NCBI GenBank assembly: GCA_963667035.1
Contig: OY762964.1
Location: 288,001 to 352,000 of the forward strand
DNA: 64,000 bases
Reading direction: 5' to 3'
Source: Candidatus Cloacimonadales bacterium
GTDB taxonomy: Bacteria > Cloacimonadota > Cloacimonadia > Cloacimonadales > JAFGVF01
The stretch's first letter is position 1, and the number at the start of each line of letters is the position of its first letter. A model generated the notes under the pieces. It had not been told where the DNA came from, made no database searches, and was given only the letters and a program-made list of their open reading frames with translations. Shown piece by piece: positions 33,764-52,542 of the stretch. The translations under genes and the position numbers were made by a program.

Positions 33764-34606
33764 CGTCCTAAATAAAGTAGACACATATATAACTGAGAGA
33801 AATTAAAGGTTTACAGAAAATGAAACAGAAAACAGCATTATGCTATAGTGAAGTATTTAAACGCAAAGTAGTTAAAGAAATTGAAGATGGAGTCCTAACT
33901 ATCTCCCAAGCAAGAACTATTTACAACATAGGTGGCTCCTCAACTTTGAAACGTTGGATTAATGAATACGGAATAAATGATTGCATGGGAAGGACGGTAC
34001 ACTTGGATGCAGCCGAAAAGCTACTACAAAGAGAAGAAAGCCTTAGAGCAAAAGATAGATTTTGAAGAGAAGGTAATCTCTAAAGTTATGGTTATACGTT
34101 CAGTAATTCCAGAGACCGGAGGTCGTAAATTACAGGAGCATCTTCCTGATCCTGAATATGGAGTTCCAATCACAGTTGGACGCGATAAGCTTTTTGATAT
34201 ACTCAGAGCTCAAGGTTTGTTGTTTAAACATAAGCCTCGTAAGGTATATACATCTGTCTCTGACCCGGATCATCAAGTATATCTAAATTTATTAGAGAAT
34301 CTGACAGTAACTCGACCTAATCAGGTTTGGGTAACAGATATAACCTATTTGCAGTTAGTAAATGGTAAGCATTGCTATCTATCAATAATGATTGATTACT
34401 ACAGTCGTAAGATTGTGGGTTTTACAGTACAGAAAGACATGACGGCAGAAAGTACACTTGCAACCTTCAATAAAGCTTATAAGAGTATCAAGCCTGCACC
34501 CGGCTTGATACACCACTCTGATAAAGGTTCTCAATACACTTCAGGAGTCTATACTAATCGATTGCAAGAGTGTGGAGTAGATATAAGCATGACCGGTCCT
34601 AACAAA
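33764..34606 (+). mobile_element. IS3 family element remnant (internally deleted, 3' truncated)
   Basis: OrfA HTH (YSEVFKRKVVKEI...TLKRW) and OrfB rve (RPNQVWVTDITYL, HHSDKGSQY). Similarity stops at SMTGPNK, before the catalytic Glu region; no right IR seen. Confidence 0.85.
33820..34606 (+). pseudogene. IS3 orfA/orfB transposase pseudogene
   Basis: OrfA appears to lack its C-terminal helix. OrfB is in the +1 rather than the usual -1 frame and lacks the DNAxxE segment. Confidence 0.8.
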
Positions 34607-34626
34607 TCAAAGACCATAAAATTCGT

Positions 34627-34663
34627 AAAAGAAAAACCCCAAGTTTATTTCGAAACTTGGGGT
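34627..34663 (-). terminator. intrinsic terminator of the glpK-esterase-pepA unit
   Basis: ACCCCAAGTTT-6 nt-AAACTTGGGGT, 11-bp stem with a U-tract on the minus strand. Confidence 0.8.
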
Positions 34664-34691
34664 AAACTGATTTATCGTTCTTATGCTTTAT

Positions 34692-36146
34692 TTATTCAGC
34701 TAAGTTCTCTATTAGAGCAGTAATTAGTCTAACTCCCCAGCCGGTAGCACCGGATGGAGTATACCCTTTATCTTTTGCACTTAAAGCAAGTCCCGCCATA
34801 TCAACATGGAGCCAAGGCTTGCCCTGTACGAATTCTTCAATAAACATTCCTGCAGTTATAGTCCCCGCTTCTCTGCCACCAACATTTTTAATGTCAGCAA
34901 TGTTAGATTTGAGAAGATCTTTGTATTCTTCAAAGTTTGGGAGAGGCCATATTTTTTCACCTGTAATGTCTGAAGCAGCATCAAGAGCTTCCAGAAGACC
35001 TTCATCATTAGTTACAACAGCCGAAGCAACTGTTCCTAAGCAAACCACTTGTGCTCCTGTAAGAGTAGCTATATCGAGAAGTCCGTAAACATTTTCTTTT
35101 TCAATTGCATAGTGAATAGCATCTACAAGAGTTAATCTTCCTTCAGCATCGGTATTAATAACTTCAATGGTTTTGCCGGCCATTGAACCGATTATATCTC
35201 CGGTACGATAGGCATCTCCTGAAATCATATTTTCACAAGTTGCAATTATAGCGGTCACATTAACTTTTGGTCTGAGCTGTCCGATGGCACACATAGCACC
35301 AATAACAGCTGCAGAACCACCCATATCAGCTTTCATTGTTACCATTCCGTCTGCTGTTTTTATGCAATATCCGCCACTATCGTAAGTTAATCCCTTACCG
35401 ATAAGACCAAATGTTTTGTCAGTATCAGGGTCACCTTTATATCTCATGATAATAAGTTTTGGTTCTTCTGTAGCACCTTTAGCAACTGACCAGAAAGCAT
35501 CCATTTTATTGGCATGAATATATTCTTTACTATGAACCTCAACATGTAATCCTGATTCAGTACCCATTTCGTGAGCTCTTCTTGCTAATTCAGTCGGAGT
35601 AACAACATTTGCAGGTTCATTAACCAGGTCTCTGGCAAAGTTGGTTGTTTTACCAAGAATTTGACCTTCATAGATTCCATCTTCCATATCAAGATTAGTC
35701 TCACTTAAGAGATATATTATTTTTAAATTGCTATCATTTTTCTTTTCCTGGAACTTGTCGAATTTATAAAGTGCCAATTCAACAGCTTCTCCGATAACTC
35801 TACCGAATAATTTGTAGTCGTCTGTGTGTGGGTACTGAGCAATTATGCATTCATCCACAGGCTTAAACTTGGCAATTGCCTTAATGCTGGTAGCAATTGC
35901 ATTCCTAAGAATGTCCGGTCCGTATTTATCTTCTTTTCCAAGTCCCACAAATATAGTGTCAATTCTACCCTTATCGATTCTATCTATAAAAGTGTAACTC
36001 TGACCTTTCTTAAAATTGAATTCGGAAGCTATCAATTCTTGCTTTTGAGCTTCAGTAACCCATTCCGGATAACCTTCTTGTTCGAAATCAAGTTTAAGAT
36101 ATACCTTCGCTGTATCAGGTATCCGGGAGATTAGTTTAATATTCAT
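34692..36146 (-). CDS. pepA: leucyl aminopeptidase (M17)
   Basis: GKGLTYDSGG, MKADMGG, NTDAEGRL and DIATLTGA motifs. Confidence 0.95.
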   Translation of the reverse strand: MNIKLISRIPDTAKVYLKLDFEQEGYPEWVTEAQKQELIASEFNFKKGQSYTFIDRIDKGRIDTIFVGLGKEDKYGPDILRNAIATSIKAIAKFKPVDECIIAQYPHTDDYKLFGRVIGEAVELALYKFDKFQEKKNDSNLKIIYLLSETNLDMEDGIYEGQILGKTTNFARDLVNEPANVVTPTELARRAHEMGTESGLHVEVHSKEYIHANKMDAFWSVAKGATEEPKLIIMRYKGDPDTDKTFGLIGKGLTYDSGGYCIKTADGMVTMKADMGGSAAVIGAMCAIGQLRPKVNVTAIIATCENMISGDAYRTGDIIGSMAGKTIEVINTDAEGRLTLVDAIHYAIEKENVYGLLDIATLTGAQVVCLGTVASAVVTNDEGLLEALDAASDITGEKIWPLPNFEEYKDLLKSNIADIKNVGGREAGTITAGMFIEEFVQGKPWLHVDMAGLALSAKDKGYTPSGATGWGVRLITALIENLAE

Positions 36147-38488: not shown

Positions 38489-40852
38489 CTACAGAAGACT
38501 TATCGGGTCAATATCCAAAGTAGAATGAATAGTTGTTAATTTTGGTCCGTTAGTAAGAATATAATCAATAGCTTTATGTAGCAGAGCTATGCTAGGAGCT
38601 CTAACTATGACATGGTATCTGTAATTATTATTAACTTTGGGAATAGGAGCTTCAATAGGTCCATTTATTATGACTTTGTTATCCAATGTATCGGCGATTA
38701 TCTTAAACATAGGTTGTAAACCAATCATTGATTTTTGGAGTGAATTCTGATTTTTACACTGGTAAACGATTCTTGCCATTTTATAGAATGGGGCATACTT
38801 TAGAGCTTTTCTTAACTCAAGCTCTTCTTTTACAAACAAAGATTGATCTCTCGCCACAGCATATCTAATGGAGTAATGTTCCGGTAGATAAGATTGAATA
38901 ACCACTTCACCGACTTTATCAGCTCTACCCGGGCGTCCTGCAATTTGTATTAGTAACTGGAATGCACGCTCTGAAGCCCTAAAATCAGGGAAACTGAGTG
39001 ATAAATCTGCCGAAATGACTACTGCTAAGGTTACATTGGGAAAATCTAATCCTTTAGCAATCATCTGTGTCCCAAGCAATATGTCAACACTACCTGAAAT
39101 CATTGATTCAAAAAGCTCTTCATGAGCATTTCGTTTTTTTGATGTATCTGAATCTATACGGAGTATGCTTGCTTCGGGAAATCTCTCCTTTAAAATCTCT
39201 TCAATTCTCTGAGTACCGGGAGTTCCAAGTCTAAATTCATAGGAACCACAATTACTGCATTTACGAGGAGGAGGTGTTTCTAATCCGCAATAATGGCACA
39301 CGAGCTTATTCAAGTCCTTATGATAGTGCATGCTGATATCACAGTTATTGCATTTTACTATTTCACCACAAGAAGTGCATTGGATGTAAGCGGAAAAAGC
39401 TCTTCTGTTATGAAGTATCATGATTTGTTCTTTTGCTTTCAAACGATCCGCAATCTTATTGATAAGATATGGGGAAAATATAGTTCCCTTTGCTTCTTTT
39501 CTCATGTCTACCAGAGTAATTTTAGGCTCTTTATGCTTAGTTGGTCTGTGAGTCAATTTCAAGAGCTTGTACTTACTTGTGAAGACATTATTGAACGACT
39601 CCAAACTTGGGGTAGCACTTCCTAAAATTACAGGACAATTATGAGCTTTTGCTCTCACGATAGCAATATCTCTTGCATTATAGCGAGGAGCAATATCTTG
39701 CTTATAACTTTGATCGTGCTCTTCATCAACAACAATCAAACCAAGATTGGCTAAAGGAGCAAAAATTGCGCTTCTTACTCCTACTACTATTCTTGTGAAA
39801 CCATTGTTTATTCTTTTCCACTCTTCATACCGAGCTCTATCTGAAAGACCGCTATGTAGAATAGATACACTGTTTCCAAAGACAGCTTTAAATCTGGTTG
39901 CAGTTTGGGGTGTAAGAGAGATTTCAGGTATTAATACAATACCTGTTTTACCATTATTCAGTACCTCTTTCAGCACTCTGATATACACTTCTGTTTTACC
40001 ACTTCCTGTAATTCCGTGTAAAAGGAATGGAGAAAACTCTTTAAGATTGGAAGTGACTTTCCCAATGGCTTCTTCTTGCTCTTTTGAGAGTTGTATGCTT
40101 TCGTCTTGTTTATAAGATCTATCTAATTGAAACCCATCAGGACAAGGTAGTGAAACAGCCTTAATTGCACCTTTTTTCTCCAAGGCTCTTATCACATAAG
40201 AAGAGAATCTCTTATTAAGAGAATTCTTTGGATACATTCCATCTTTCTCAAGTAAGAAATCCATTACTATTGTTTGCAAATCAGTAAGTTTTACTTCTCG
40301 GTTATTTATCTTTAAGTAAGTGCAAACTTTATCATTTACTTTCTGAGGATATCTACGCTCAATTTGTATCAGATCTTGTTGTTCTAATTCTAGTATTCTG
40401 GAATAGAAGTTACCTGTTTTTGATTCACGTCGGATTTTATTCAGCTTATGCTTTTTATTCTTGTCTAGCTCTGAAAGGTATTGAGTGAGATTATCAATAA
40501 TTGGAAAATCCTTCAGAACAATAACATCTTGCATTATCTCAAGATTAAAGGCTGGCGGAAGAATCGAAAAAAGAGCTTTCCCAAGACTGCAAAAGTAGTA
40601 ATTGCTTATCCATGAGGCTAGTTTATAGAGTTGTGTATTTATTAAGGGGTCTTCATCAATAATCTCTATGACAGGTTTATACTTAATGGTAGAATCAAGA
40701 ATTGATTCATCAACTTCTTCTCCGGCTATTCCAACTTTAATGATATTCTGGAAAGGAACGATCAATCTCGCTCCTTTCTTAATTGGAGTAAAGGAGTAAT
40801 AATGAAAAGTGGTATCAATATCAATATTCAAGTATACTTCATAATAAATCAT
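38489..40852 (-). CDS. priA: primosomal protein N' (replication restart helicase)
   Basis: GITGSGKTEVY, PEISLTPQ, DEEH, four CxxC motifs and GTQMIAKGLDFP. Confidence 0.96.
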   Translation of the reverse strand: MIYYEVYLNIDIDTTFHYYSFTPIKKGARLIVPFQNIIKVGIAGEEVDESILDSTIKYKPVIEIIDEDPLINTQLYKLASWISNYYFCSLGKALFSILPPAFNLEIMQDVIVLKDFPIIDNLTQYLSELDKNKKHKLNKIRRESKTGNFYSRILELEQQDLIQIERRYPQKVNDKVCTYLKINNREVKLTDLQTIVMDFLLEKDGMYPKNSLNKRFSSYVIRALEKKGAIKAVSLPCPDGFQLDRSYKQDESIQLSKEQEEAIGKVTSNLKEFSPFLLHGITGSGKTEVYIRVLKEVLNNGKTGIVLIPEISLTPQTATRFKAVFGNSVSILHSGLSDRARYEEWKRINNGFTRIVVGVRSAIFAPLANLGLIVVDEEHDQSYKQDIAPRYNARDIAIVRAKAHNCPVILGSATPSLESFNNVFTSKYKLLKLTHRPTKHKEPKITLVDMRKEAKGTIFSPYLINKIADRLKAKEQIMILHNRRAFSAYIQCTSCGEIVKCNNCDISMHYHKDLNKLVCHYCGLETPPPRKCSNCGSYEFRLGTPGTQRIEEILKERFPEASILRIDSDTSKKRNAHEELFESMISGSVDILLGTQMIAKGLDFPNVTLAVVISADLSLSFPDFRASERAFQLLIQIAGRPGRADKVGEVVIQSYLPEHYSIRYAVARDQSLFVKEELELRKALKYAPFYKMARIVYQCKNQNSLQKSMIGLQPMFKIIADTLDNKVIINGPIEAPIPKVNNNYRYHVIVRAPSIALLHKAIDYILTNGPKLTTIHSTLDIDPISLL

Positions 40853-40884
40853 GATTCCAACCAATTTAGCTTTTAATAAAAGTC

Positions 40885-40919
40885 AAAAAAAAACAGCTTT
40901 GCTAAAGCAAAGCTGTTTT
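40885..40919 (-). terminator. intrinsic terminator closing the 8-gene operon
   Basis: AAAACAGCTTTGCT-AA-AGCAAAGCTGTTTT hairpin with a long U-tract on the minus strand. Confidence 0.85.
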
Positions 40920-40934
40920 ATAATTATAAGATTC

Positions 40935-42437
40935 CTAGCTACGAAGCATAAGCTTAAATCCATAGCCGAGAGATTCTTTAAGTTTCATAGGGAACTTCCA
41001 ACCAAGAACTATGTCTCTTGCTTTCTTTAAGAAGTCAGGAGTAAATACACTACCTGCTGAGCCTTCAATTCCTGCTTCAGTAATGTTACCGTTAACATCA
41101 ACCTCAATAGTAACATTGAGGATACCATAGATGTTTTGGATCTGACGTTCTTTCTCAAAAAGCTGAACAATCTGTTTCTTTCGAATATTCACGAAACGTT
41201 TAATTCTTTCAAAGTTACCTTTTTCCTGAGCACTTAGCTCTTCTTTAGGACCTTCTTCACTAACAACTTTAATGTTCCTAGCTTTGAAACTAGCTATCAT
41301 AGCAACAGCAGTTTTACCACTCAATACTTGAACATTACCTGCTGTAATTGAAGCACCGCCTCCTGCTAATTGTGAAAGGTCAGTTATGGCTGATCCTGCA
41401 CCTTTGAGCTCTGATTGAGTCATTAGAGATGCTGCCCCAACTTGTGAAAGAACAGCTGCGGAGTTATCTAAACCGCCGGCTCCTCCACCAATGCCAGGAC
41501 CTGCACCAGGACCACCACCAGGTTTACCGGGACCTTTGCCTTTACCTTTTCCTGGACCTCGTCCACCACCGCTACCTCCGGCAGCTGCAGCGACAATAGT
41601 CTCAGAAGTAACAGCAAATGCTGGTCCTTTTACTTCAACAAGATCCTTTGTCTCTGATACATCGAAACCTAGAAGAGATTGTGCCATAGCAGCAGCTGCA
41701 GCACTTCTTTCTCCGGCTGACATTTCAGAAATACTTGGACCTTTTTCAGTAACTTCTTCTGTAGGTATTTCTTCATCAGTTTGAGCCTGACCTGTATCTT
41801 GTTCAAGATCTGCAAAACTAGTTCCAATTTGAGATTTAGTGGCAGCTTGAGATTCTCTAATTGCAGCAAGTCTGCTTTCAAGAGTATTCTCAAATACCGG
41901 TGGCCTGTAAGTTCTACTGAATACTGCCATACCGATAAACGAGATTATCATAGCAATAATAATAAAGTTTCTTGTAAATCGTGCTTCTGAAGTTAATTCC
42001 TCAAAACGATGATATTGCTTAATGATTGTCTCCTGCTGTTTTGTATAAGTAGGAGTATAAGGATCACCAAAGCTATAGGTGATTTCATAATCATCATTTA
42101 GTTGTATTGTACCACTTGTTTCCGGTGATAAAACAAATTTGGTACCGTTAAGAAGGTTCTTCTTCTTTAACTCATCCAAAGTCATTTCTTGATTATCACC
42201 TTTAACAATGTTAAGCTTCATATCTTTTGTGAGCATTACATTGAAAGTATTGCTTTGCTTAACAACGAAAAGATGCTTATCAGGAAATTTGGGGTCTATA
42301 ATCTGCCAGAACATTTTGCTATCTTTACCAAGATACATTTTATTCGCAATTAATGACTCCTTATTTCCTATGGATGCGGCATAATTAATCTGTTTACCAC
42401 GGAAGTAAAGGCGCATTCTTAATACTTTTTCACTCAT
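40935..42437 (-). CDS. TonB-like energy transducer with AgmX/PglI-type C-terminal domain (GltG-like)
   Basis: Cytoplasmic beta-rich N-domain, single TM (FIIIAMIISFIGMAVF), Gly/Pro/Lys linker, and C-terminal I.R.V......I...FE......G...V...V...G.I.....I..WKFP. Confidence 0.75.
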   Translation of the reverse strand: MSEKVLRMRLYFRGKQINYAASIGNKESLIANKMYLGKDSKMFWQIIDPKFPDKHLFVVKQSNTFNVMLTKDMKLNIVKGDNQEMTLDELKKKNLLNGTKFVLSPETSGTIQLNDDYEITYSFGDPYTPTYTKQQETIIKQYHRFEELTSEARFTRNFIIIAMIISFIGMAVFSRTYRPPVFENTLESRLAAIRESQAATKSQIGTSFADLEQDTGQAQTDEEIPTEEVTEKGPSISEMSAGERSAAAAAMAQSLLGFDVSETKDLVEVKGPAFAVTSETIVAAAAGGSGGGRGPGKGKGKGPGKPGGGPGAGPGIGGGAGGLDNSAAVLSQVGAASLMTQSELKGAGSAITDLSQLAGGGASITAGNVQVLSGKTAVAMIASFKARNIKVVSEEGPKEELSAQEKGNFERIKRFVNIRKKQIVQLFEKERQIQNIYGILNVTIEVDVNGNITEAGIEGSAGSVFTPDFLKKARDIVLGWKFPMKLKESLGYGFKLMLRS

Positions 42438-42448
42438 AGTATACTCCT

Positions 42449-43012
42449 CTAAATCTTCGAAGGCATAGTAAGCACACTTGCTCTATTTTCTTCATGTTTT
42501 GAAGCAAAATAAATATTAGAGAACTTTGCTTTAGCTGCAATATAAACCAGTTCAGTAATAATTTGACAAGGTGTTGAATAATCAGCCTGAATAATTAAGA
42601 GGGGAGCAAGATCAGGATTAGAACTTATAAGTGCCTCAACCTCAGTTTCAAGATATGTCTTCAGATTTTCTCTGGTATTCTGATCATTGACAATCTGTTC
42701 TAATGTACCAACAGGAGTATTGTCAGTACCCACATATATATTATCGGGATATACTTTCACAAGTAATGTTCTTGTAGAGCTCTCATCATACTCTTCTTGA
42801 GTCAGAGTTGTAGGGAACTCTAATCCCTTGGGTTGACTTAAGACCTGTGCAGTCATGTTAACATTCTTAATCAGGAAAACAAGTAGGATAGTGAGGATAT
42901 CAACCAGTGAGGTAATGTTCAACTGTTTGACTTTACCTTTGTTATTCTTAGCACGTGCATAACCTTCTTCTTCAAAATCATCTTCAAGTTCAAAGTTTCT
43001 ATTTCTTAACAT
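42449..43012 (-). CDS. ExbD/TolR family protein (AglS-like)
   Basis: TM LNITSLVDILTILLVFLIK with the conserved Asp; periplasmic LIIQAD motif. Start at ATG 43012 after GAGG. Confidence 0.88.
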   Translation of the reverse strand: MLRNRNFELEDDFEEEGYARAKNNKGKVKQLNITSLVDILTILLVFLIKNVNMTAQVLSQPKGLEFPTTLTQEEYDESSTRTLLVKVYPDNIYVGTDNTPVGTLEQIVNDQNTRENLKTYLETEVEALISSNPDLAPLLIIQADYSTPCQIITELVYIAAKAKFSNIYFASKHEENRASVLTMPSKI

Positions 43013-43023
43013 ATGCACCTCTG

Positions 43024-43548
43024 CTATTGCATTTGAACGAGTTTACGACGTTGATAAGCAACATCTGGGAATCTTACTTTTCCGTCTTCAGTAGACATCT
43101 TGCAAATATCAATTATTCTTAGTAAATGCTCATATTTAACATTATCATAAGGAGTAATTTTAATAGTTTGCTGTTCAGGATTCCTTTTCTTAACTCCATC
43201 AAGGTATTTATCCAATTCTACATAATTGAAATCATCTATGAACTTACGTTTCTTATCAAGCTCTTCAATAACTTCAATTCCTCGAGTAAACTTACCGTCT
43301 ACTTCGTCATTATATATGACTAGGTCAACGGCATATACTTTTTCATCTTCACCGCCTCCACCGTCTCCTGAACCTCCTGCATCCGCGCCTGAAAAATTCA
43401 GAGCAAGAAGTGTTACTTGCACGGATACAACCATGAAAAGCAACATCGGAATGATGGTTAAAAAGAGATTCATGATCGGCACAAGGTTTGGCGGATCAGT
43501 TGAGTGGGAAGCTTTATTGCTTCTACTTTGAGACGGTCTATAAGCCAT
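43024..43548 (-). CDS. ExbD/TolR family protein (AglQ-position) with Asn at the TM Asp site
   Basis: TM PNLVPIMNLFLTIIPMLL; periplasmic ITP..NVKYEHLLRIID...FP. Confidence 0.85.
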   Translation of the reverse strand: MAYRPSQSRSNKASHSTDPPNLVPIMNLFLTIIPMLLFMVVSVQVTLLALNFSGADAGGSGDGGGGEDEKVYAVDLVIYNDEVDGKFTRGIEVIEELDKKRKFIDDFNYVELDKYLDGVKKRNPEQQTIKITPYDNVKYEHLLRIIDICKMSTEDGKVRFPDVAYQRRKLVQMQ

Positions 43549-43550
43549 TA

Positions 43551-44285
43551 TTATTCCTTAATATTAGCGTTAATCTTATTAATCATTTTAACACTGTATT
43601 CATCAATGTCATTCATGATTTTTTCTGCTCTGTTTCTAAGGGCACCTTGAATCAATGTTGTAGGGATAGCAACGATAAGACCCATACCTGTTGTACCCAT
43701 CGCAGCTTTAATACCACCGGTAAGAGCTTCTTGTTGTTCTGTACCAACTTTACCTTCAAGAGAACTGAAAGCAAGGATAAGACCGTAAATAGTACCAAGA
43801 AGACCGGTAAGAGTAGAAATATTAGCGATGATTTCAAACCAGAAAAGACCGGACTCAATTTTTGGAATCTTCTGTAACGAAGCTTCATCAAATGCTCTTT
43901 GAACTGATCTTTTGAGTTCCATACCTTTTACACCGCTTTTCTGCTGATCAACAAACACTTTCAAACCACTCCAGAAGATAAATCCAAGTGTAGTTTTCTT
44001 GAATGCTTCTGTAATTTTGATAGCTTCATTGTAGTTTTCTGATTTAACATACCCTTGTAACTTCAAGTAGAAATTACGAGTATCAATTTTTTCATCGAGG
44101 AAGAGTTTTTTGAATTTAACAAATCCATAAACTATAGCAATTATAAGATAGCCGAGGATGATATAAGCCCAGAATGATGACTCTTTCCATACTGATGCAA
44201 AATCCAATCCACCGGTTGGAGCTGCAAATAATGATACTCCCATTAATATCAGCAATGCAACTAAAAACAATCTCTTACTTTTCAT
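43551..44285 (-). CDS. MotA/TolQ/ExbB proton channel protein (AglR-like)
   Basis: IANISTLTGLLGTIYGLI.AF and GIKAAMGTTGMGLIVAIP helices. Confidence 0.92.
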   Translation of the reverse strand: MKSKRLFLVALLILMGVSLFAAPTGGLDFASVWKESSFWAYIILGYLIIAIVYGFVKFKKLFLDEKIDTRNFYLKLQGYVKSENYNEAIKITEAFKKTTLGFIFWSGLKVFVDQQKSGVKGMELKRSVQRAFDEASLQKIPKIESGLFWFEIIANISTLTGLLGTIYGLILAFSSLEGKVGTEQQEALTGGIKAAMGTTGMGLIVAIPTTLIQGALRNRAEKIMNDIDEYSVKMINKINANIKE

Positions 44286-44299
44286 GCTTTCTCCTTTTT

Positions 44300-44512
44300 C
44301 TAATATAAATTTCTATTCGACTCTTTTAACTTCATTAGTAGAAACTTATGATACTTGTTATTGTATTCGGTTTTCTTACGGAGAAGGTTTGATTCAATCT
44401 TTGGAGCTTTTCGGATTTCAGCTTCAAATACTTCAGTTTCCGTAAAGGTAACCGATTTCACTAATGAAAAAGCCAAAACTAATAGTAAAACTGAGAGAAT
44501 CTTCTTCTTCAT
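44300..44512 (-). CDS. small secreted protein (GltF-like position and size)
   Basis: 70 aa with a signal peptide; ATG overlaps the upstream TAA; GGAGG/GGAG RBS. Confidence 0.7.
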   Translation of the reverse strand: MKKKILSVLLLVLAFSLVKSVTFTETEVFEAEIRKAPKIESNLLRKKTEYNNKYHKFLLMKLKESNRNLY

Positions 44513-47500
44513 TATTCTCCTCCCTTTTTATAAACAAGGTTCATATCAAGAATCAGGGCAGTTTGCTTTTTGCTACTCTCAACCTTAACCACTATCGAGT
44601 TAAGCTCACTATTGAAACCGGCAGGATCAATGTCAACAGGGTTTGAGAAGATTGCATTATTCTCTTCATCAGTAAATGCTTCTATCTCCTCCGATATCAT
44701 TATGCCATTTAACCAGATAGTTGCCTTTTCAACAGCAGCAAATTTCAAACTTGCTTTTATAACTTCTTGGTATCCTATGAAGTCCTTCTTAAAGTATTTC
44801 ACATAAGTTTTTGTTTCTTCGGTAGGAATTTCTTCTATTGCCAGGCTATCAGTTAGAGTTGTATCTGAAACAGCAATCTCAGTAATTTCTTCTCTAACAA
44901 TTGTGCTATCTATCTCTGCTTTTTGCATAACAGTACTAGTAGCATATATCCATCTGGCAGATGTAGACTCCATATCATAAATCTTATCAGTAGGATATAT
45001 CTGTTCGAATGATTCAACGGCAATCCATTCACTATTAGCGGTACTCATAGAATCTGACGGAATATAAATATCTGACATTTTCCATTCACTACCTGATATA
45101 ATCTTATCTTCAGCAGTTGTTCTATGATAATTTAAGGTTTCGCTGTCAAAGGCAACTTGCATATTTAATGCCAATACAGCTGTTGTATCTGAGATATTGT
45201 CTGCTTTAACCTCGAACTTATTAGTTCCTTCTTTTAACATTGAATAATCAATTTTATATAGATAGTGAGGTGTTATCTGATTGTTAATTGTTAAAGAATC
45301 AACAAAAACAGGTAGTTGCTTAACTATCGTATCATTAACCCAGAACTTAATGTTTGCAGTATCAGGATAAGCAAATTGAATATAAGCTTTCGCAGGAAGA
45401 ATCTCTGCACTTGTAGTGCAACTTGCAAAGACACTGTTGTAAGGTCTTATCTCAAAACCACTCAATACTAGATTTCGAGGTGTTACAAATTGGCTAATCT
45501 CATTATAACTTTTTGTTGGTACATAGAGTGAATCAGGTGATTCTAAAAGATTGTTCTCAACAAACCATGATGTATCAGGGGGCATGTCATTAACATCAAG
45601 TTGTGGTACTAAATCTGCAATCTTAGGCATCATCGTTTCAATATTCTTATCTGTATAACCTGTGCCATCAACAAAGAAGTTGTACAAATTGAGGTATCTC
45701 TTTCTTGATTCTTCGCGATATAGCTCTACAAAGCTATCTGTCATTGGTTTCAATTGAAGCTCAATAACATTATCAACTTGGTCTTTTCCTGACGCTTGTT
45801 TAAGATTGTAAATTTCATTAGATTGAGTGAAGTAGAATTCCATTCTGCGATCAACAACTTTTGCTGCATGTTCCCAAATCTCTCCTGATATATATAGCAA
45901 CCTTACTTTTCTAGGAATATCAATATTCCATTCAGCAGCTTCTTGAAGAAGCTTTACCAACTCGCCTTCTTTTTTGGAGGCTAATTGATAAACATATTGA
46001 ATTCTGTTATTATCTTTAGAAACTGTTTGATTAGTTTTATTTAATACATGAGTTCTAAACTTAGTGTTATGATTAACTCTAAAAATATCTTTGTCATTTG
46101 CGTTTAGCCATGAATTTCTAAGGTTAGTAAGACGTTTATCATAGCTAGCAAGAAAATCTGCTCTGTCTTTTAGATATTGCTGATATTCCTGCCATGCTTT
46201 GTATTCCGCAGCATAGTAATCGAACCATTTATTAATCTCAGGCATAATCTCAGTGAGGTTGACGCCTTTCTTGGAATAATAACTTTCAAGTTTTCTTACT
46301 TCATCAATTTTAGCATTCATGCTATCCCAGTCTTCGGACTTAAAGGCAACATCGGCTTCCTTAACAACCTTATCAATCTTCTGAAATGCTATTGCACTAT
46401 ATAAATCGACAGAAGGATCTTTTTCATAGATGTAATGAGCAATCTGTTCATACTTATCCTTATCAGTATCATAGTAGGCTTTTGCTATAAACTTCAAATA
46501 ATCCATAGAACTTGGATCATCAGGATAAATTTTTTCGAATTTACTCATTAACGAAATCAAAGTATCTTGATTCGCTGTTTCATCTTGAAGGTAAATATTG
46601 ATAGCCATTTTATAGATATCTTCTGTTTTATTTTCACCAATGTCTATTTTGCCATTCTTAGCAGTGTTATGTAGTTCTAAATATCCTGCAGCTGCATCAT
46701 ATTTATATGTACCTGAGTTTTCTTTTTCCTTTAACTGATTAAGGATTATAGTAAAAGACTCATTGGATTCAGGGAACTTTGAGACAAATCTATTTTGAAT
46801 AGATATTACTTGTGTTGTATCTGACAAAACAGTATCAGCTATAGCCCAAGCGTTGTAATATAATGAATGAATATCTTTAAGCTCGGTTTTAAACTCAGCA
46901 TTCTCTAATAGTATATCAATAGAATTCTGATAATCTCCACCTTTAAAGAATAGCTGACGTGCCTTATCCCTTAAATCATAAACCCTATCTTTGTCTGTTT
47001 TAGGGTCGAACTTAGATGCTAATCTAAGCTGTTCATTAGCCGCTGTTATATAATCTGCAGTATCAGCTAATCTGTCTACATTCTTGTTAATTTGAGCTAA
47101 GTAGCTTTGTTTAAGCTCTTTCTGGTCTTCTTCATCATTAGCATACTTTTGAGCTTCAGCATAATACCCCTCTGATTGGTTGAACTCAGACTTCTTCTCG
47201 TGTAATTGAGCCAAAAGCACGTAGATATCTCTAGTTCTAACCTTCTCATTCTGATATTTCAATAGTTCATTTAAATCAGCTACAACCATATCGTCATTTT
47301 CAAGCTCTCTATTTATAATACTTCTGTTCCAAAGAATACTCTTTATCACATTGTCTTGTTCAGGAGTATAGAACTCATTGCTTGTTATGACTTCATAAAA
47401 TCTACTTGCCCCGGCAACATATAAGCTATCGAGATAAGACTTTGTAATCTCAATATTGTTAATTTCGTCGAAGTAAGTCGAATCTGCTACTATTGGACTA

Positions 47501-48996
47501 AGCTTGTTATAGGCATAATCGGTTGCTGAAAAAAGCATATATTCTTTTTCATAGCTAACAGTAGTATCTGATGAAGCTGCTTCTTGTGTTAGGATAAGAT
47601 TCTGTGTAAAAAGGTAGTATTCAGTTTGACCAGTATTCTCAGCCAAGTTGAAACCAAAATTTATCATCTTATCACTTTTGTCTGTTAACCAAGCAATGCC
47701 TGCCTCATCTTTAAATTCAGGAATTTCAGCATAGGCATTGATCAAATCAATATAGCGTTTATAGTTTTCGACAGATGCTTGATTAATGAGGTCATTACTA
47801 TAGAATGTTTCAAGTCTTTCAAACTTATTTCTTACGGAGTTGAAATAGCTCATGAATTCATGATTGTTTCTATTAGCATTGTACCAATCAGAGTTATAGC
47901 CATAAGATGAAATAGCGTATAATGATTTCTCCTTAACAACATCTCTATATTCTTTACCATCCCTAATGTAGCTGGCATAAGTTGAATATAAATCCAATAC
48001 TGAATCAATATAAGTAGGATTGCTGATATTTAATGAATCCAAGCTAATACGAGCAAAATAGTAATCGCCTGCTTGCATAGGAGCATTCAAATCGAGTTTA
48101 AGATTAATAACTTCGTCAAAGATGCGTTGATTTATTGAAAGGGTAAAAAGAGATGCATAATTGTTTATAAAGGCATCTGCTGATTTAGCATAATCTAAAT
48201 AATTAGTACTATCTATACCCACCAAAGAGTAAGCAACATTCTCAACCGCAAAATCATGATAATAGAGTTTTGTATAGTCTCTGTCGTCTTTTAAGATTGA
48301 TGCAAAGTCAGTGATAGCATTATCCCAATCGGACATTTGGTAATATGCCCATGCTCTTTGGAATAAAGCATCTGTTTTCATGTTACTAATTTCATCATCA
48401 CGATTAATCAATATCGAAAGAAAAGCTGCTGATTTCTTGTAGTAATTTAAAGGGATTTCAGCATTCGTGGCTATATCTGAGAATATAAGTGCAAGTTTGA
48501 ATATGCTTTCATCATAATAATCCGTATAACTGTACTCTTCAATAACTTTTGCATAAAAGTCCTTGGCTTCGGAAAACACTTCATTTGAGTATTTTAAAGA
48601 GTCTGGCCAAGTAACAAAAGTCGGATTAGCTTCTTCATATAATGGTCTGCCATCATCAATCCTATCTTTTGCCATTTTATAACTGTAATATGCGATATTG
48701 TATAAGATAATCTCTTTGTCATAGAAATTAGGATCCGCCTCAAGTACTTTCTTATACCAATTTAAAGTAATGGAGGGGGTCTCACGGTATAAGCTCGAGC
48801 TTATCTCTGCTAAGTTATAATACAACTTAGGAAGATTAGGACTATTAGGATTATCTAGAATAAACTGTTGTGTTTGTCTATAAATATCCGCTTTATAATT
48901 CTGAACCTCTTCAAATTGATCTTTAAGACTTTTTTGTCCCCACAACCCACTTAATGCAAGTAAAAATAAAATAATAACAACACTACATTTTTTCAT
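44512..48996 (-). CDS. 1494-aa exported TPR protein with C-terminal jelly-roll domains (GltD-like position)
   Basis: Signal peptide; TPR-like helices (YYNLAE, LYNIAY, IFKLA, LFQRAWAYY, FV.KFPES); beta-rich C-terminal region of about 350 aa. Confidence 0.8.
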   Translation of the reverse strand: MKKCSVVIILFLLALSGLWGQKSLKDQFEEVQNYKADIYRQTQQFILDNPNSPNLPKLYYNLAEISSSLYRETPSITLNWYKKVLEADPNFYDKEIILYNIAYYSYKMAKDRIDDGRPLYEEANPTFVTWPDSLKYSNEVFSEAKDFYAKVIEEYSYTDYYDESIFKLALIFSDIATNAEIPLNYYKKSAAFLSILINRDDEISNMKTDALFQRAWAYYQMSDWDNAITDFASILKDDRDYTKLYYHDFAVENVAYSLVGIDSTNYLDYAKSADAFINNYASLFTLSINQRIFDEVINLKLDLNAPMQAGDYYFARISLDSLNISNPTYIDSVLDLYSTYASYIRDGKEYRDVVKEKSLYAISSYGYNSDWYNANRNNHEFMSYFNSVRNKFERLETFYSNDLINQASVENYKRYIDLINAYAEIPEFKDEAGIAWLTDKSDKMINFGFNLAENTGQTEYYLFTQNLILTQEAASSDTTVSYEKEYMLFSATDYAYNKLSPIVADSTYFDEINNIEITKSYLDSLYVAGASRFYEVITSNEFYTPEQDNVIKSILWNRSIINRELENDDMVVADLNELLKYQNEKVRTRDIYVLLAQLHEKKSEFNQSEGYYAEAQKYANDEEDQKELKQSYLAQINKNVDRLADTADYITAANEQLRLASKFDPKTDKDRVYDLRDKARQLFFKGGDYQNSIDILLENAEFKTELKDIHSLYYNAWAIADTVLSDTTQVISIQNRFVSKFPESNESFTIILNQLKEKENSGTYKYDAAAGYLELHNTAKNGKIDIGENKTEDIYKMAINIYLQDETANQDTLISLMSKFEKIYPDDPSSMDYLKFIAKAYYDTDKDKYEQIAHYIYEKDPSVDLYSAIAFQKIDKVVKEADVAFKSEDWDSMNAKIDEVRKLESYYSKKGVNLTEIMPEINKWFDYYAAEYKAWQEYQQYLKDRADFLASYDKRLTNLRNSWLNANDKDIFRVNHNTKFRTHVLNKTNQTVSKDNNRIQYVYQLASKKEGELVKLLQEAAEWNIDIPRKVRLLYISGEIWEHAAKVVDRRMEFYFTQSNEIYNLKQASGKDQVDNVIELQLKPMTDSFVELYREESRKRYLNLYNFFVDGTGYTDKNIETMMPKIADLVPQLDVNDMPPDTSWFVENNLLESPDSLYVPTKSYNEISQFVTPRNLVLSGFEIRPYNSVFASCTTSAEILPAKAYIQFAYPDTANIKFWVNDTIVKQLPVFVDSLTINNQITPHYLYKIDYSMLKEGTNKFEVKADNISDTTAVLALNMQVAFDSETLNYHRTTAEDKIISGSEWKMSDIYIPSDSMSTANSEWIAVESFEQIYPTDKIYDMESTSARWIYATSTVMQKAEIDSTIVREEITEIAVSDTTLTDSLAIEEIPTEETKTYVKYFKKDFIGYQEVIKASLKFAAVEKATIWLNGIMISEEIEAFTDEENNAIFSNPVDIDPAGFNSELNSIVVKVESSKKQTALILDMNLVYKKGGE

Positions 48997-48998
48997 GC

Positions 48999-51041
48999 CT
49001 ACTTGCCTCCCGGTGATGAGTTACTACTATTATCTCTTGCTTTTATAAAGGCATCATCTTGCTTGACTGTATCAATGTAAAGCAAGTCGATAATAGTATA
49101 ATCAAACTCTGATTTTACTCTATTTATGTCTGACCTAATATTTGCAACTACAGCGGTATGGTCATCAATAACCACATCCTGTTTAACAGCGTCCTTTTCA
49201 GTTCTTCTTAACAAGATTGCAGCTAAACGCTCATTAAAGCTTTCAGCAACGAATTTACGAATTTCGAGAAGGTCCTGTCTATCCTCTAAGAGGCTGTTTA
49301 GCTCAGTTTCAAGTTCATTAGCTGTTTCTTTGTTAATCCAGTAATCACTGTAACGTAATTCCATTTCATTTTCAAGATTAGCAATGCTCTTGTGCAAATC
49401 CAAAATATATTGGTCAATAGATTCAATCTTAGCTTGATTATCTTTAGTTCTAATAAGGTCTTTAACATTTCCCCACATTTGAATCATTTTCTTAGATTCA
49501 TATATTTCACTTGCTACTGACAAAGCAATGTTGAGATCATTTTGAGATACAGTTTCCATATCCAAAAGGAATCTCTTAGCCAAAGCAAGAACGTACAGTT
49601 GATCTGTATATAAAATGACATCGTCAACCATAGATACTCTGCTGTCATTAGGTTGTTCACCAAGAACATGCAAATGCAACACTTCTTCAACTATACTATT
49701 TACTGAGTCAATATAATCATTTTCCATTGTCCAAAGTTCACGAAGCTTTTCCTCGTCTGCACCTGATGCTGTTGTGAGCATCTTTTCTGAAGCTAGAGAT
49801 ATCTTATCTTCTGCACTTTGGATTTTTGTTATTAAATCAAGTTTTTCTTCTTTTGACTCTGCATCGAAAAGTTGCATTTTTAAGTTTTGCAGCTCTTCCA
49901 CTTTCTTATGTTTAGCAATAAGAATATCTAGATATAGATTGGCGAAATCCATTGCTGAATCAACAATCTCTTTTTGCTCACTAAGTGATTTATCCTTATA
50001 ATCCATAGTTGCAAGGAGGTAAACACATGCAGTATAATATTCATTATTAAATGGGTTAGCCTGAATATCTTCCAGTAACGCTTTAGCCATTTCCAAATCA
50101 CCGTTATTCATATTCATTACAGCGATTTCGAATTTAACTTCAGCAGTCATCTTGCCTGTTACACTAACTATAGAGTTGTATTGAGAATAGTACTTAGTTG
50201 CACTCTCAATATCACCTCTTTGAGCTTGGATACGGGCAATACTCAATGGTATATATTCATAATAAGGAGTATTTACCGGGTATGCTTGCATAAGGAGTAA
50301 AAATGACTCTAAACCTGCTTCAAGTGGCTCTGTAAATGATGAAATCAAGGCGATCATAAACTGTGACCTAAAGCCAAAAGTCTGATCTTCTGTTAAGGTT
50401 TCAAATACATTAACTGCATCTATGTACTTATTCTCATTGTATAAAGTTTGCCCATACCAATAATCTTGTGAACTAGATTTATCCCAGACATATTCCTCGT
50501 ATGATTTGAGGAATTTCTCATTCTGCCCACTCTTAATATAAATATTCTGCAAAGTATAATTTGCAGATTTATATTTAGAAGATGCAGGATACTTATTTAT
50601 CAGATTCTCAAGTTTGGTTTGAGCTCTAGAATAGTCTTTTTTCTGGAAATCAATCAGGGCTCCATAGAAAAGGAATTCATCGTTGACAGCACTTGTACTC
50701 TTGTAAGCAAGCTTTAAATCTTCAAGTAGCAAAATTGTCTTAGACAAATCCTTCTCAACCAAGCTGCTTTTCAAAGTAGACTCATCTTCTTTGAAAAGCT
50801 CTTTTATCTGGTCATAAAGCCCTTGTTTCTCTAGGTTCTTAACTTGACGTTTTCTTAAGGCTACGGTTCTTAATTGATCTATCTGATCTTCCAAATCAAC
50901 TACATCACTAAGTTCGTCCTTAATAATCTGAACCCTATCAGACTGTTCTAAACCGTTCCACTGGTTCTCACTAATCTCAGCATACGCTAAAACGCTCAGG
51001 TACAATGAAATCAATAAGAAAAGATATGATATCTTTCTCAT
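48999..51041 (-). CDS. exported TPR and coiled-coil protein (GltC-like position)
   Basis: Signal peptide; TPR segments (FLFYGALIDFQKKDY..A...LE.LI.KYP.S, YWYGQTLY) followed by long coiled-coil helices. Confidence 0.75.
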   Translation of the reverse strand: MRKISYLFLLISLYLSVLAYAEISENQWNGLEQSDRVQIIKDELSDVVDLEDQIDQLRTVALRKRQVKNLEKQGLYDQIKELFKEDESTLKSSLVEKDLSKTILLLEDLKLAYKSTSAVNDEFLFYGALIDFQKKDYSRAQTKLENLINKYPASSKYKSANYTLQNIYIKSGQNEKFLKSYEEYVWDKSSSQDYWYGQTLYNENKYIDAVNVFETLTEDQTFGFRSQFMIALISSFTEPLEAGLESFLLLMQAYPVNTPYYEYIPLSIARIQAQRGDIESATKYYSQYNSIVSVTGKMTAEVKFEIAVMNMNNGDLEMAKALLEDIQANPFNNEYYTACVYLLATMDYKDKSLSEQKEIVDSAMDFANLYLDILIAKHKKVEELQNLKMQLFDAESKEEKLDLITKIQSAEDKISLASEKMLTTASGADEEKLRELWTMENDYIDSVNSIVEEVLHLHVLGEQPNDSRVSMVDDVILYTDQLYVLALAKRFLLDMETVSQNDLNIALSVASEIYESKKMIQMWGNVKDLIRTKDNQAKIESIDQYILDLHKSIANLENEMELRYSDYWINKETANELETELNSLLEDRQDLLEIRKFVAESFNERLAAILLRRTEKDAVKQDVVIDDHTAVVANIRSDINRVKSEFDYTIIDLLYIDTVKQDDAFIKARDNSSNSSPGGK

Positions 51042-51074
51042 TACTTCCTACTTAAAAAGTTGAGAGTGGTTAAT

Positions 51075-52055
51075 TTATTCAGACTCTTCGAGAATTCTTC
51101 TGATATCTTCAAGTTCCTGTTGAGCCTTTTGTCTTCTTTCTCTAATTGCTCTTAACTCTTGAAGAAGATCGTCTGTTTCTCCTAACTGGTCTTGATTTGT
51201 AATAACTCTAGTTCCTCTGATAGCATCTTTGTTGCTACCTGCAATCCTTGGTTGCTTGGATTCTTTTACATAGTCGTTAAATGTATAAGAAAGAGCAAAA
51301 GTGAAATTCAGTTTATCATATGAATCATCACCTTTGAAATATTCATCTAACTCAGTAAATGCCATTCTAAGAGCAAAATCATTATAATTTAAATCTATTC
51401 CGGCATTAACCATGGATCCATCAACTTCACCGATTACACCAAACCACTTATTAGGGCGGAAAAGAACAGAAGCGAATAACCCGCTGAAATCTGATGATAA
51501 ATCACCGACTCCTTGATATTTTTGCTTTGAACCGATACCTAATGAAGCTACAGTCTCAATGTAACTAAATACAGGTAAACCACGAATTACGGTTGACTTG
51601 GTAGCAACAGCATAGAATGCGTTCTTCTCGAAATATCTTGAATAATAGCCGTACTTATCTACGTCTCTATTGGGTGCGTCACCAGAGTCTGCATCACGTC
51701 CAATAGGTGAGCCGATATTATCCATACCGAAAGATACTGCAGGAAACTTTACTGTTTCTTCAAAAACTTTAACCTTTGCATTAGCAAAGGCTAGTCCGTC
51801 ACAGTCATCTGTGTATACAACTCCTACTTCAATTCTGTCCCAAAGACCGCCTGAAATCGCACCTACAAGCTTACTTTCAAGTTTGCCGTTACCGTCGTCA
51901 CGTGTGTAAGTAGCAAAAGTTCCGGTAAATTCTGTGTGAGGCACTACATAGCCATTTGGTGTTCTAATAGCTGAGCCTAAAGATGTAAACGGTGCTGCTA
52001 TCAGTGAACAGATGAAAAGCATTACAAATACAATAAGGTAAATTTTCTTCATCAA
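51075..52055 (-). CDS. YjbH-like outer-membrane beta-barrel protein with C-terminal coiled coil
   Basis: Signal peptide, IRTPNGY N-terminal motif, amphipathic strands (RIEVGVVY, ANAKVKVF, PAVSFGMD, NAGIDLNY, FALSYTF) and a charged helical tail. Confidence 0.7.
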   Translation of the reverse strand: MMKKIYLIVFVMLFICSLIAAPFTSLGSAIRTPNGYVVPHTEFTGTFATYTRDDGNGKLESKLVGAISGGLWDRIEVGVVYTDDCDGLAFANAKVKVFEETVKFPAVSFGMDNIGSPIGRDADSGDAPNRDVDKYGYYSRYFEKNAFYAVATKSTVIRGLPVFSYIETVASLGIGSKQKYQGVGDLSSDFSGLFASVLFRPNKWFGVIGEVDGSMVNAGIDLNYNDFALRMAFTELDEYFKGDDSYDKLNFTFALSYTFNDYVKESKQPRIAGSNKDAIRGTRVITNQDQLGETDDLLQELRAIRERRQKAQQELEDIRRILEESE

Positions 52056-52119
52056 TTCCCCCTCCTAGGGATTATTTTTTTTCCATATTTAAATCAATAA
52101 ATTAGACTTTATCAGTAAT

Positions 52120-52147
52120 AAAATACAATTGACAATTATTTAGTCAA
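52120..52147 (-). promoter_or_regulatory. putative sigma70-type promoter for the 8-gene operon
   Basis: Minus strand TTGACT-16 nt-TATTTT, overlapping an opposing TTGACA (52129-52134) upstream of the YraN gene. Confidence 0.4.
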
Positions 52148-52173: not shown

Positions 52174-52542
52174 ATGAAAAATGATTTAGGCACCCAAGGA
52201 GAAATAGTTTCTCTTAAACATCTATCCCGCAAAGGATACCAAATAATTTTCAAGAACTTCCATTCACGTTATGGGGAGATAGACTTGATTGCAAAGAAAG
52301 GAACGTTGTTGGCGTTTGTTGAAGTAAAAACTCGCACCAATACCCCTTTTTATCAAATACAAACGGCTATCTCCAGAGCTAAGCAAAATAAAATATCTTT
52401 AACAGTTATGGAATTCCTGAATTGCTATCCGCAATACGAAAACTCAGAAATTCGTCTAGATATGATACTTTGCAATTATATCTCAATGTCAAATGAATTC
52501 TCGGTTAAGCATATTGAGAATGCTTTTGATTTAACATTCTAA
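52174..52542 (+). CDS. YraN family (UPF0102) PD-(D/E)XK protein
   Basis: G..GE...L...GY.I...N....GEIDLIA...FVEVKTR and RLD motifs. Confidence 0.92.
   Translation: MKNDLGTQGEIVSLKHLSRKGYQIIFKNFHSRYGEIDLIAKKGTLLAFVEVKTRTNTPFYQIQTAISRAKQNKISLTVMEFLNCYPQYENSEIRLDMILCNYISMSNEFSVKHIENAFDLTF

Follow-up and report, generated by a model that had tools for sequence, protein, structure and literature searches.

The gliding (Agl-Glt) and spore-coat (Agl-Nfs) machines of Myxococcus move surface polysaccharide (PMC3858216; here and below, statements from published work refer to the sections and tables of the papers cited), and a core complex encoded by gltD, gltE, gltG and gltC together with aglR, aglQ and aglS in one locus has been described in some proteobacteria and in Fibrobacter succinogenes (Luciano et al., 2011; PMC3169522). 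The core by itself was argued not to drive motility (Luciano et al., 2011; PMC3169522), and its function outside the myxobacteria has been a question since 2011. Here, we analyzed an operon of eight genes, named g1 to g8 in the order of transcription, from a Candidatus Cloacimonadales bacterium (GCA_963667035.1) that appears to encode a version of this core. The window, i.e., the whole stretch of 64,000 nucleotides (nt) that was analyzed, corresponds to G000:C1:288001-352000 (contig OY762964.1), and coordinates are those of the window unless a genome position is given.

In F. succinogenes, the core is encoded by Fisuc_1892-1897, listed in this order as GltC (Fisuc_1892, 746 amino acids, aa), GltD (1893, 1292 aa), AglR (1894, 212 aa), a gene with a question mark in place of a name, AglS (1896, 164 aa) and GltG (1897, 308 aa) (PMC3169522, Table S3). 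The sizes published for the components are 673 aa for GltC, 1191 for GltD, 89 for GltF, 245 for AglR, 162 for AglQ and 194 for AglS (PMC3169522), and GltG consists of an FHA domain, a transmembrane (TM) helix, a linker and a TonB-like domain (PMC3169522, Table 1; PMC11761067). In a proteomic study of the same organism, FSU_2396 (OmpA), FSU_2397 and FSU_2398 (TPR), FSU_2400 (MotA/ExbB), FSU_2401 and FSU_2402 (ExbD) and FSU_2403 (TonB) were up on cellulose, and FSU_2396 and FSU_2397 co-purified with cellulases as a vesicle complex (Raut et al., 2019; PMC6851124). From the matching annotations we infer that Fisuc_1892-1897 and FSU_2397-2403 are two sets of names for one cluster, and that FSU_2396, of the OmpA family, lies upstream of it. 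A literature search found no publication treating Cloacimonadota together with AglR, and none of the listed matches on gliding motility and TolQ mentions Cloacimonadota. The literature on type IX secretion systems (T9SS) in Cloacimonadota (including PMC8542988) leaves this operon untreated in the sections available.

Relationship to Myxococcota Agl-Glt Clusters

Eight co-oriented open reading frames (ORFs) occupy positions 40935-52055 on the minus strand, at exactly the coordinates given in an earlier note on this DNA that had been made from the sequence alone. From g1 to g8 they are spaced by 33, 2, -1, 14, 2, 5 and 11 nt, and they are as follows:

51075..52055, minus strand: g1, 326 aa, predicted secreted outer-membrane beta-barrel
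48999..51041, minus strand: g2, 680 aa, GltC-like, a secreted TPR protein whose C-terminal half is long and helical
44512..48996, minus strand: g3, 1494 aa, secreted, GltD-like body with a beta-rich C-terminal extension
44300..44512, minus strand: g4, 70 aa, secreted, GltF-like by position and a common motif
43551..44285, minus strand: g5, 244 aa, channel subunit of the MotA/TolQ/ExbB family, AglR-like
43024..43548, minus strand: g6, 174 aa, TolR/ExbD-like, with Asn instead of the essential TM Asp
42449..43018, minus strand: g7, 189 aa, TolR/ExbD-like, with the TM Asp (D40) kept
40935..42437, minus strand: g8, 500 aa, GltG-like transducer

The sizes agree with those published for GltC, GltD, GltF, AglR, AglQ and AglS. 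We consider it probable (roughly 0.75) that the operon encodes a Cloacimonadota Agl-Glt core complex, doing mechanical work on cargo in the outer membrane or at the surface. A lineage-specific version of this core had been proposed in the earlier note, and profile alignments (hhalign), synteny and a tree of the channel subunits all bear the proposal out.

Using four GltG-like relatives of g8 as queries, 80 loci were collected, almost all from Myxococcota, with no core locus of Fibrobacter or of gammaproteobacteria among them. Hidden Markov models (HMMs) of the Cloacimonadota families match the neighbors of the GltG-like genes in these loci, in the same order, with best E-values of 1.6e-50 (g5), 1.1e-38 (g3, against the GltD-like proteins), 8e-27 (g6), 2e-26 (g7), 1.2e-22 (g2), 5e-22 (g8) and 9e-5 (g4). 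The five Myxococcota loci that were mapped read GltC-like, GltD-like, GltE-like, small ORF, AglR-like, ExbD, ExbD, GltG-like. NCBIfam backs the GltC, GltE and GltG readings of these neighbors, all below the equivalog cut-offs, and the Myxococcota GltC-like family matches the GltC model NF033756 at 1e-29. Single-sequence reverse searches from the Myxococcota proteins found g5, g6 and g7, and did not find g2, g3 and g8. As far as profile comparison, synteny and the tree can tell, the link to Agl-Glt-type clusters of Myxococcota holds for seven of the eight genes (g2-g8).

The succession MotA/ExbB, ExbD, ExbD that had been read from the translations was found back in Pfam, where g5 matches MotA_ExbB (PF01618) at 1e-22 and g7 matches ExbD at 1.7e-12; the ExbD match of g6 is weak (1.6e-4) and below cut-off. 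Among the NCBIfam models, TolQ scores highest for g5 (69.5 bits, cut-off 221), with ExbB at 30 bits (cut-off 206). Aligned to the Myxococcota AglR-like family, g5 reaches 9.7e-46 (hhalign), and in the reverse direction the Myxococcota profile scores g5 at 122 bits and the next paralog of this genome at 86 bits. In the careful maximum-likelihood tree, a branch with support 100/99 parts 40 sequences on the Agl side (20 g5 proteins from Cloacimonadota and as many AglR-like proteins from Myxococcota) from 26 others, comprising TolQ and ExbB of E. coli, five Myxococcota TolQ proteins, 16 ExbB-like proteins and three paralogs from this genome. A quick tree rooted on MotA contains the same clade of g5 and AglR-like proteins with a support of 89. 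The phylogeny, which the earlier note had named as a check, places g5 with the AglR-like proteins and away from TolQ and ExbB.

Of the two ExbD-like families found in the Myxococcota loci, g6 aligns with the first at 1.4e-22 and with the second at 5.6e-4, and g7 with the second at 3.9e-26 and with the first at 4.1e-5 (hhalign); the TolR model scores g7 at 21.6 bits (cut-off 127.3). With the reverse Myxococcota profiles, g6 and g7 are also the best matches in this genome. At the column of TolR D23, all g7 sequences carry Asp (20/20) and all g6 sequences Asn (19/19). The same column holds Asn in 14 of 20 first and Asp in 17 of 21 second ExbD-like genes of Myxococcota. Judged by these alignments, g6 and g7 appear to be two distinct TolR-like subunits, as an AglQ/AglS-type pair requires, and the Asp/Asn difference between them would predate the divergence of the Cloacimonadota and Myxococcota versions.

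The product of the last gene, g8, had been described as a single-TM protein with a Gly/Pro linker and a TonB-like C-domain of the AgmX/PglI type, and this description agrees with our results; g8 is not an ordinary TonB or TolA. [quoted passage not shown] This is the published layout of GltG. Foldseek matches of the N-terminal domain are FHA domains (E 2e-3 to 5e-2, probability around 1.0), and the family profile matches TonB C-terminal domains in the PDB at an E-value of approximately 0.003; no g8 match to PF03544 (TonB) was found at E ≤ 0.1. The AgmX/PglI C-terminal model NF033768 is matched by 12 of 18 g8 orthologs at E ≤ 0.01, and g8 aligns with the Myxococcota GltG-like family at 3.6e-23 over 424 columns (hhalign). 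Because the cut-off of the GltG model NF033760 (650 bits) is reached by no Cloacimonadota protein (best 84.7 bits), we call g8 GltG-like and not GltG proper. Searched against 1.84 billion representatives, the g8 ortholog profile finds, beyond its own clade, proteins of approximately 440-480 aa, and most of the 39 such relatives scanned match NF033760 (down to 1e-59) and, above cut-off, NF033768. A homologue search with g8 returned six proteins, the named ones all from Cloacimonadota, and among ten distant relatives that were checked the one carrying a name is from Cloacimonetes.

For g2 and g3, TPR models are the only Pfam and NCBIfam matches, and with their orthologs these proteins match TPR models of the YbgF/CpoB and BamD types. 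Alignment of g2 with the Myxococcota GltC-like family gives an E-value of 1.5e-21 over 284 columns, compared to 6.9e-9 with the GltD-like family (hhalign); its length (680 aa vs. 673 aa for GltC) and its position fit as well. Between g3 and the GltD-like family, the alignment runs over 948 collinear columns (residues 45-1160 vs. 88-1106 of 1157) at 1.9e-48, delimiting a GltD-like TPR/helical body of approximately residues 45-1160 and a beta-rich extension of approximately 1160-1494. This extension looks like galactose-binding-type sandwiches, going by rhamnosidase-N-like matches in three orthologs (1e-15) and Atlas leads of 0.85-0.91.

The small protein g4 matches no Pfam or NCBIfam model. In an alignment of 16 positional orthologs one Pro is invariant, and the C-terminus is marked by the motif ...SN(K/R)LLY. 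Searching 6317 ORFs of the Myxococcota loci, the g4 HMM has four matches (9e-5 to 5e-4), and all four are the small ORF directly upstream of an AglR-like or GltG-like gene, which is the GltF position. These ORFs have the motif [IV]xGx[IV]xKPxA[MLF] in common with g4, which suggests that a GltF-like small protein is not restricted to the myxobacteria.

The Outer-Membrane Barrel and the Surroundings of the Operon

The first gene, g1, likewise has no Pfam or NCBIfam match, and its homologues appear to be confined to the phylum: they include a protein from Candidatus Zophobacter franzmannii with 83% identity, and a homologue search with the g1 alignment returned eight proteins, of which the named ones are all from Cloacimonadota. 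An AlphaFold model (AF2) from an alignment of 20 sequences (pLDDT 68.7, predicted template modeling score, pTM, 0.64) has 12 strands and a C-terminal helix, and its best Foldseek matches in the PDB are outer-membrane barrels, namely FapF (8e-6), a designed 12-strand barrel (TMt 0.58) and porins. Conserved parts are an N-terminal periplasmic segment (APFTxLG...PxxYVxP) and the C-terminal helix (residues 294-325). YjbH (PF06082) is weakly matched by 8 of 20 orthologs (best E-value 6.8e-4), with an Atlas lead of 0.94. We read g1 as a predicted outer-membrane barrel of 12 strands that is specific to the lineage and weakly resembles YjbH, the model supporting the barrel; an outer-membrane barrel belonging to the lineage itself is what the earlier note had expected here. 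A complex prediction of g2 (residues 21-680) with g1 (residues 21-326) scored 0.01, against a mark of 0.32, and says nothing either way.

A barrel inside an operon that also encodes proteins of MotA/ExbB, ExbD and TonB-like fold invites the reading of a specialized Ton system, in which an ExbB-ExbD-ExbD-TonB complex would power the uptake of large solutes, such as oligosaccharides, through g1, and an import role has been proposed for FSU_2400-2403 (Raut et al., 2019; PMC6851124). However, g1 is small, with 12 strands, no plug domain and no match to TonB-dependent receptors, g5 is parted from ExbB in the tree, and two large periplasmic TPR proteins and an FHA domain would be left unexplained. 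Ordinary Ton function is covered elsewhere, since the genome holds other ExbB loci, among them one with a Plug-bearing receptor, ExbB, ExbD and a canonical PF03544 TonB. We therefore regard an import system as very improbable. As had been remarked before, the adjoining genes include no TonB-dependent receptor, tolB or pal; none of these and no Plug gene is present in or beside the operon, as judged from the gene neighborhood and from Pfam and NCBIfam. The flanking genes are priA (38489-40864, minus strand) past g8 and a gene of the YraN family (52174-52542, plus strand) beyond g1.

One promoter candidate and one strong terminator had been assigned to the operon. The terminator stands; the promoter of g1 is unsupported because promoter-like matches in the region (42) are not above those in shuffled sequences (48.6 ± 5.5). 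The corresponding features, together with the matches to the C-terminal domain (CTD) of secreted proteins, are:

40890..40919, minus strand: hairpin resembling an intrinsic terminator, 13 pairs followed by a T-run, 15 nt past the g8 stop
52106..52147, minus strand: candidate promoters, two overlapping sigma-70-like 9/12 matches upstream of g1
5891-6124, 8191-8421, 14775-15017 and 61342-61566, minus strand: CTD (Por_Secre_tail) matches among the profile matches of the genome

The four CTD matches agree with the CTD-tagged proteins that the earlier note had seen in the window. At 33820-34723 on the plus strand, two overlapping ORFs of 81 and 248 aa form what we take, from their translations, to be a two-part insertion-sequence transposase.

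Two further loci of this genome were noted. The ordinary Ton locus mentioned above (G000:C1:243422-255268) consists of a receptor with CarboxypepD_reg and Plug domains, ExbB, ExbD and a PF03544 TonB, and after it come genes for an unassigned protein of 1018 aa, a member of the PorV family and a protein tagged with a CTD. At G000:C1:2799986-2801372, a protein resembling MotA/PomA, which scores 148 bits with the MotP model and so stays below its cut-off, is encoded with a partner of 218 aa, and then come genes of 278, 853, 360 and 240 aa. To our knowledge, a flagellar-stator-like pair is unexpected in Cloacimonadota.

Conservation Across the Cloacimonadota

Synteny was examined in 20 kb around g5 orthologs, at 20 loci from 19 other Cloacimonadota genomes, one genome (G065) carrying two copies. 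The order g1, g2/g3, small ORF, g5, g6, g7, g8 is kept in all 20 loci, two of which stop before g8 at a contig edge, and a g1 homolog is found in the same position in 19. As the identical gene order recurs in 20/20 loci of relatives, the arrangement is far beyond chance; synteny in relatives had been among the checks put forward in the earlier note. In 6 of the 20 loci (L038, L039, L042, L043, L054, and L055), g2 and g3 form a single gene of 1950-2150 aa, and this natural GltC-GltD-like fusion argues for a physical association of the two TPR proteins. In G065, a class-level relative, the two copies lie on two contigs (L050 and L051). The second copy (L051), as well as L052 and L053, are nearer to the Myxococcota type, and the g8 protein of L051 matches the GltG model NF033760 at 5.5e-24 (positions 199-646) and NF033768 above cut-off.

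Across the phylum, 114 of the 151 genomes sampled give a strong match (E ≤ 3.8e-28) to the g7 profile, which has no cross-match to ordinary ExbD. For g5, 112 of the 151 match at E ≤ 1.3e-34, 24 have matches at the level of paralogs only and 15 have none. By the g7 profile, the operon was not found in the remaining 37 genomes. These include every genome of families f7 (0/6 with the operon), f12 (0/6) and f14 (0/1), as well as 11 of the 13 f13 genomes and 12 of the 31 f5 genomes. It is thus not essential to the phylum. The chromosomal place is fixed, with yraN upstream in 15 and priA downstream in 10 of the 20 loci, and the Agl-Glt core would be a stable, near-ancestral feature of an uncultivated phylum of the Fibrobacteres-Chlorobi-Bacteroidetes (FCB) group.

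This stable housekeeping neighborhood would also fit a functional stand-in for Tol-Pal, in which a motor of the TolQ/TolR/TolA kind and CpoB-like TPR partners would tether the outer membrane and constrict it as the cell grows and divides. TolB (TIGR02800) reaches its cut-off in none of the 151 genomes, with the control matched in E. coli and Caulobacter. In NCBIfam, g5 comes closest to TolQ, and none of the other ExbB-like paralogs of this genome reaches the TolQ cut-off; the YbgF/CpoB- and BamD-type matches of g2, g3 and their orthologs point the same way. However, g5 belongs to the Agl-like clade, apart from TolQ, no Pal or TolB partner is present, and the FHA domain and AgmX/PglI-type domain of g8 are unlike TolA. 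Moreover, the 37 genomes without the operon are also without TolB, so the phylum can live without both. A Tol-Pal substitute is, in our view, unlikely, and we continue to favor an Agl-Glt core. As a separate observation, the phylum may lack a canonical Tol-Pal system altogether, given the TolB result; Pal was not searched for.

Another function to be considered is that of the inner-membrane motor of type IX secretion in a phylum without GldL and GldM, and the earlier note had mentioned export of the CTD-tagged proteins as one possible output of the operon. In this genome, SprA passes its cut-off, and a PorV-like protein and 144 CTD (TIGR04183) matches are found as well. The check for gldL and gldM proposed in the earlier note gave no match to GldL, GldM or GldN in the genome, with models that had no positive control, and GldK reached 74 bits (cut-off 350). 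GldL is at cut-off in 0 of 151 genomes, again by a model without positive control, compared to 141 of 151 for SprA. That the Gld models had no positive control weighs against such a motor, as does the position of the operon, which adjoins T9SS genes in 0 of 20 loci. Furthermore, SprA is matched in 31 genomes that give no strong match to the g7 profile, and in a first look the CTD candidate counts of operon-less SprA genomes equal or exceed those of operon-bearing ones (e.g., 304, 285, and 248). As these 31 SprA genomes with many CTD candidates go without the operon, it is not a general T9SS motor; export of CTD-tagged proteins by this route is unlikely, and we hold the operon to be the missing motor with next to no confidence. 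CTD matches at cut-off occur in 145 of the 151 genomes, and going by these models type IX secretion in this phylum would do without its known motor and ring.

Proposed Function and Comparison With Known Systems

Several points weigh against the assignment of the operon to the Agl-Glt core. The Agl/Glt references were proteins from Myxococcota metagenome-assembled genomes, labeled through synteny and NCBIfam matches below cut-off, and no M. xanthus or F. succinogenes sequence was part of the comparisons. In the reverse direction, the Myxococcota GltC-like HMM ranks g2 third among the TPR proteins of this genome, the GltD-like HMM fails to retrieve g3, and the GltG-like HMM has no match in this genome. 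The assignments of g2 and g3 therefore rest on hhalign and position. The match of g8 itself to NF033768 (E 2e-4, 21.4 bits) is below the cut-off of 40 bits. No GltE was identified, as the operon has no ninth gene and no match to NF033758 occurs among the g2 and g3 orthologs; of the GltC/D/E set to which the TPR proteins had been compared, GltC (g2) and GltD (g3) are retained and GltE is not. The g1 HMM has zero matches in the 80 Myxococcota loci, and the 37 Cloacimonadota genomes without the operon count on the same side.

Homology, architecture, operon conservation and the Asp/Asn asymmetry are direct observations, from which a working model can be drawn by analogy with TolQRA, ExbBD-TonB and AglRQS-GltG; the stoichiometry, all protein contacts, the energy source and the cargo in this model are inferred. 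In the model, g5 would form an inner-membrane ion channel ring around a g6/g7 heterodimer, of which g7 alone carries the protonatable TM Asp. Ion flow would drive g8, seated on the motor via its TM helix and its cytoplasmic FHA domain, and the disordered linker of g8 could span the peptidoglycan, so that the TonB-like domain may dock on a periplasmic scaffold of g3 (GltD-like), g4 (GltF-like) and g2 (GltC-like). This scaffold would in turn be coupled to the outer-membrane barrel g1, and the membrane ion gradient would probably be used to pull on an outer-membrane complex.

By analogy, the most likely output is the moving or holding of a surface polymer, or of a surface-anchored enzyme or adhesin complex, rather than nutrient import or secretion. 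We favor a force transducer acting on surface cargo because the homologous Agl-Glt and Nfs machines move surface polymers, and g1, with its weak resemblance to YjbH, and the tail of g3, with its galactose-binding-like appearance, point to surface cargo too. Together with the Fibrobacter proteomics, this favors surface-coat or adhesion phenotypes over motility or uptake as the target of further work. We take the core to be the ancestral module from which the gliding and spore-coat machines of Myxococcus arose. A more specific possibility, which is speculative and rather doubtful, is a surface conveyor driven by the proton motive force, in which g1 and the g3 tail move or tension a surface polymer or a T9SS-anchored coat of enzymes or adhesins, in Cloacimonadota and, by homology, in Fibrobacter. 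If true, supposedly non-motile bacteria without Tol-Pal would actively attach to or glide over insoluble substrates, and this would be the ancestral job of the module that the myxobacteria later made into a gliding engine.

Compared to known systems, the operon has the motor superfamily and the TonB-like C-terminal fold in common with ExbBD-TonB, and differs in the absence of a receptor, in the AgmX/PglI-type C-terminal domain and in its TPR scaffold proteins. It resembles Tol-Pal in its motor superfamily, in a transducer that crosses the membrane once and carries a small domain at the end of a long linker, and in TPR partners with CpoB-type repeats; in contrast to Tol-Pal, the locus has no TolB or Pal, g5 forms part of a separate clade, there are two TolR-like subunits and the transducer bears an FHA domain. 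The likeness to the Agl-Glt and Agl-Nfs machines of M. xanthus includes an AglR/Q/S-like motor with two non-equivalent TolR-like subunits, a GltG-like transducer with FHA and TonB-like domains, and GltC-, GltD- and GltF-like periplasmic parts. Unlike these machines, the operon lacks GltE, encodes a barrel of its own (g1) and keeps all the genes together in one transcription unit. It contains none of GltA/B/H/K, GltI/J, CglB and AglZ/MglA, for which the rest of the genome was not searched.

The Fibrobacter core, which could be compared by its published description, resembles the operon in being a single operon of an FCB host with GltC-like, GltD-like, AglR-like, two TolR-like and GltG-like genes in this order and an outer-membrane protein gene directly upstream, and the F. 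succinogenes list is likewise without GltE (PMC3169522, Table S3). By the same description, it differs in that g1 is a predicted 12-strand barrel with a C-terminal helix and not a member of the OmpA family, that g8 has 500 aa with an FHA domain compared to 308 aa for Fisuc_1897, and that the operon has a GltF-like gene and a beta-sandwich-like C-terminal extension on g3. An Agl-Glt module can, on this evidence, come with an outer-membrane barrel of its own and with a domain that looks glycan-binding. A core cluster of the Agl-Glt kind has been in print for F. succinogenes since 2011, and the operon described here is a variant of that known kind.

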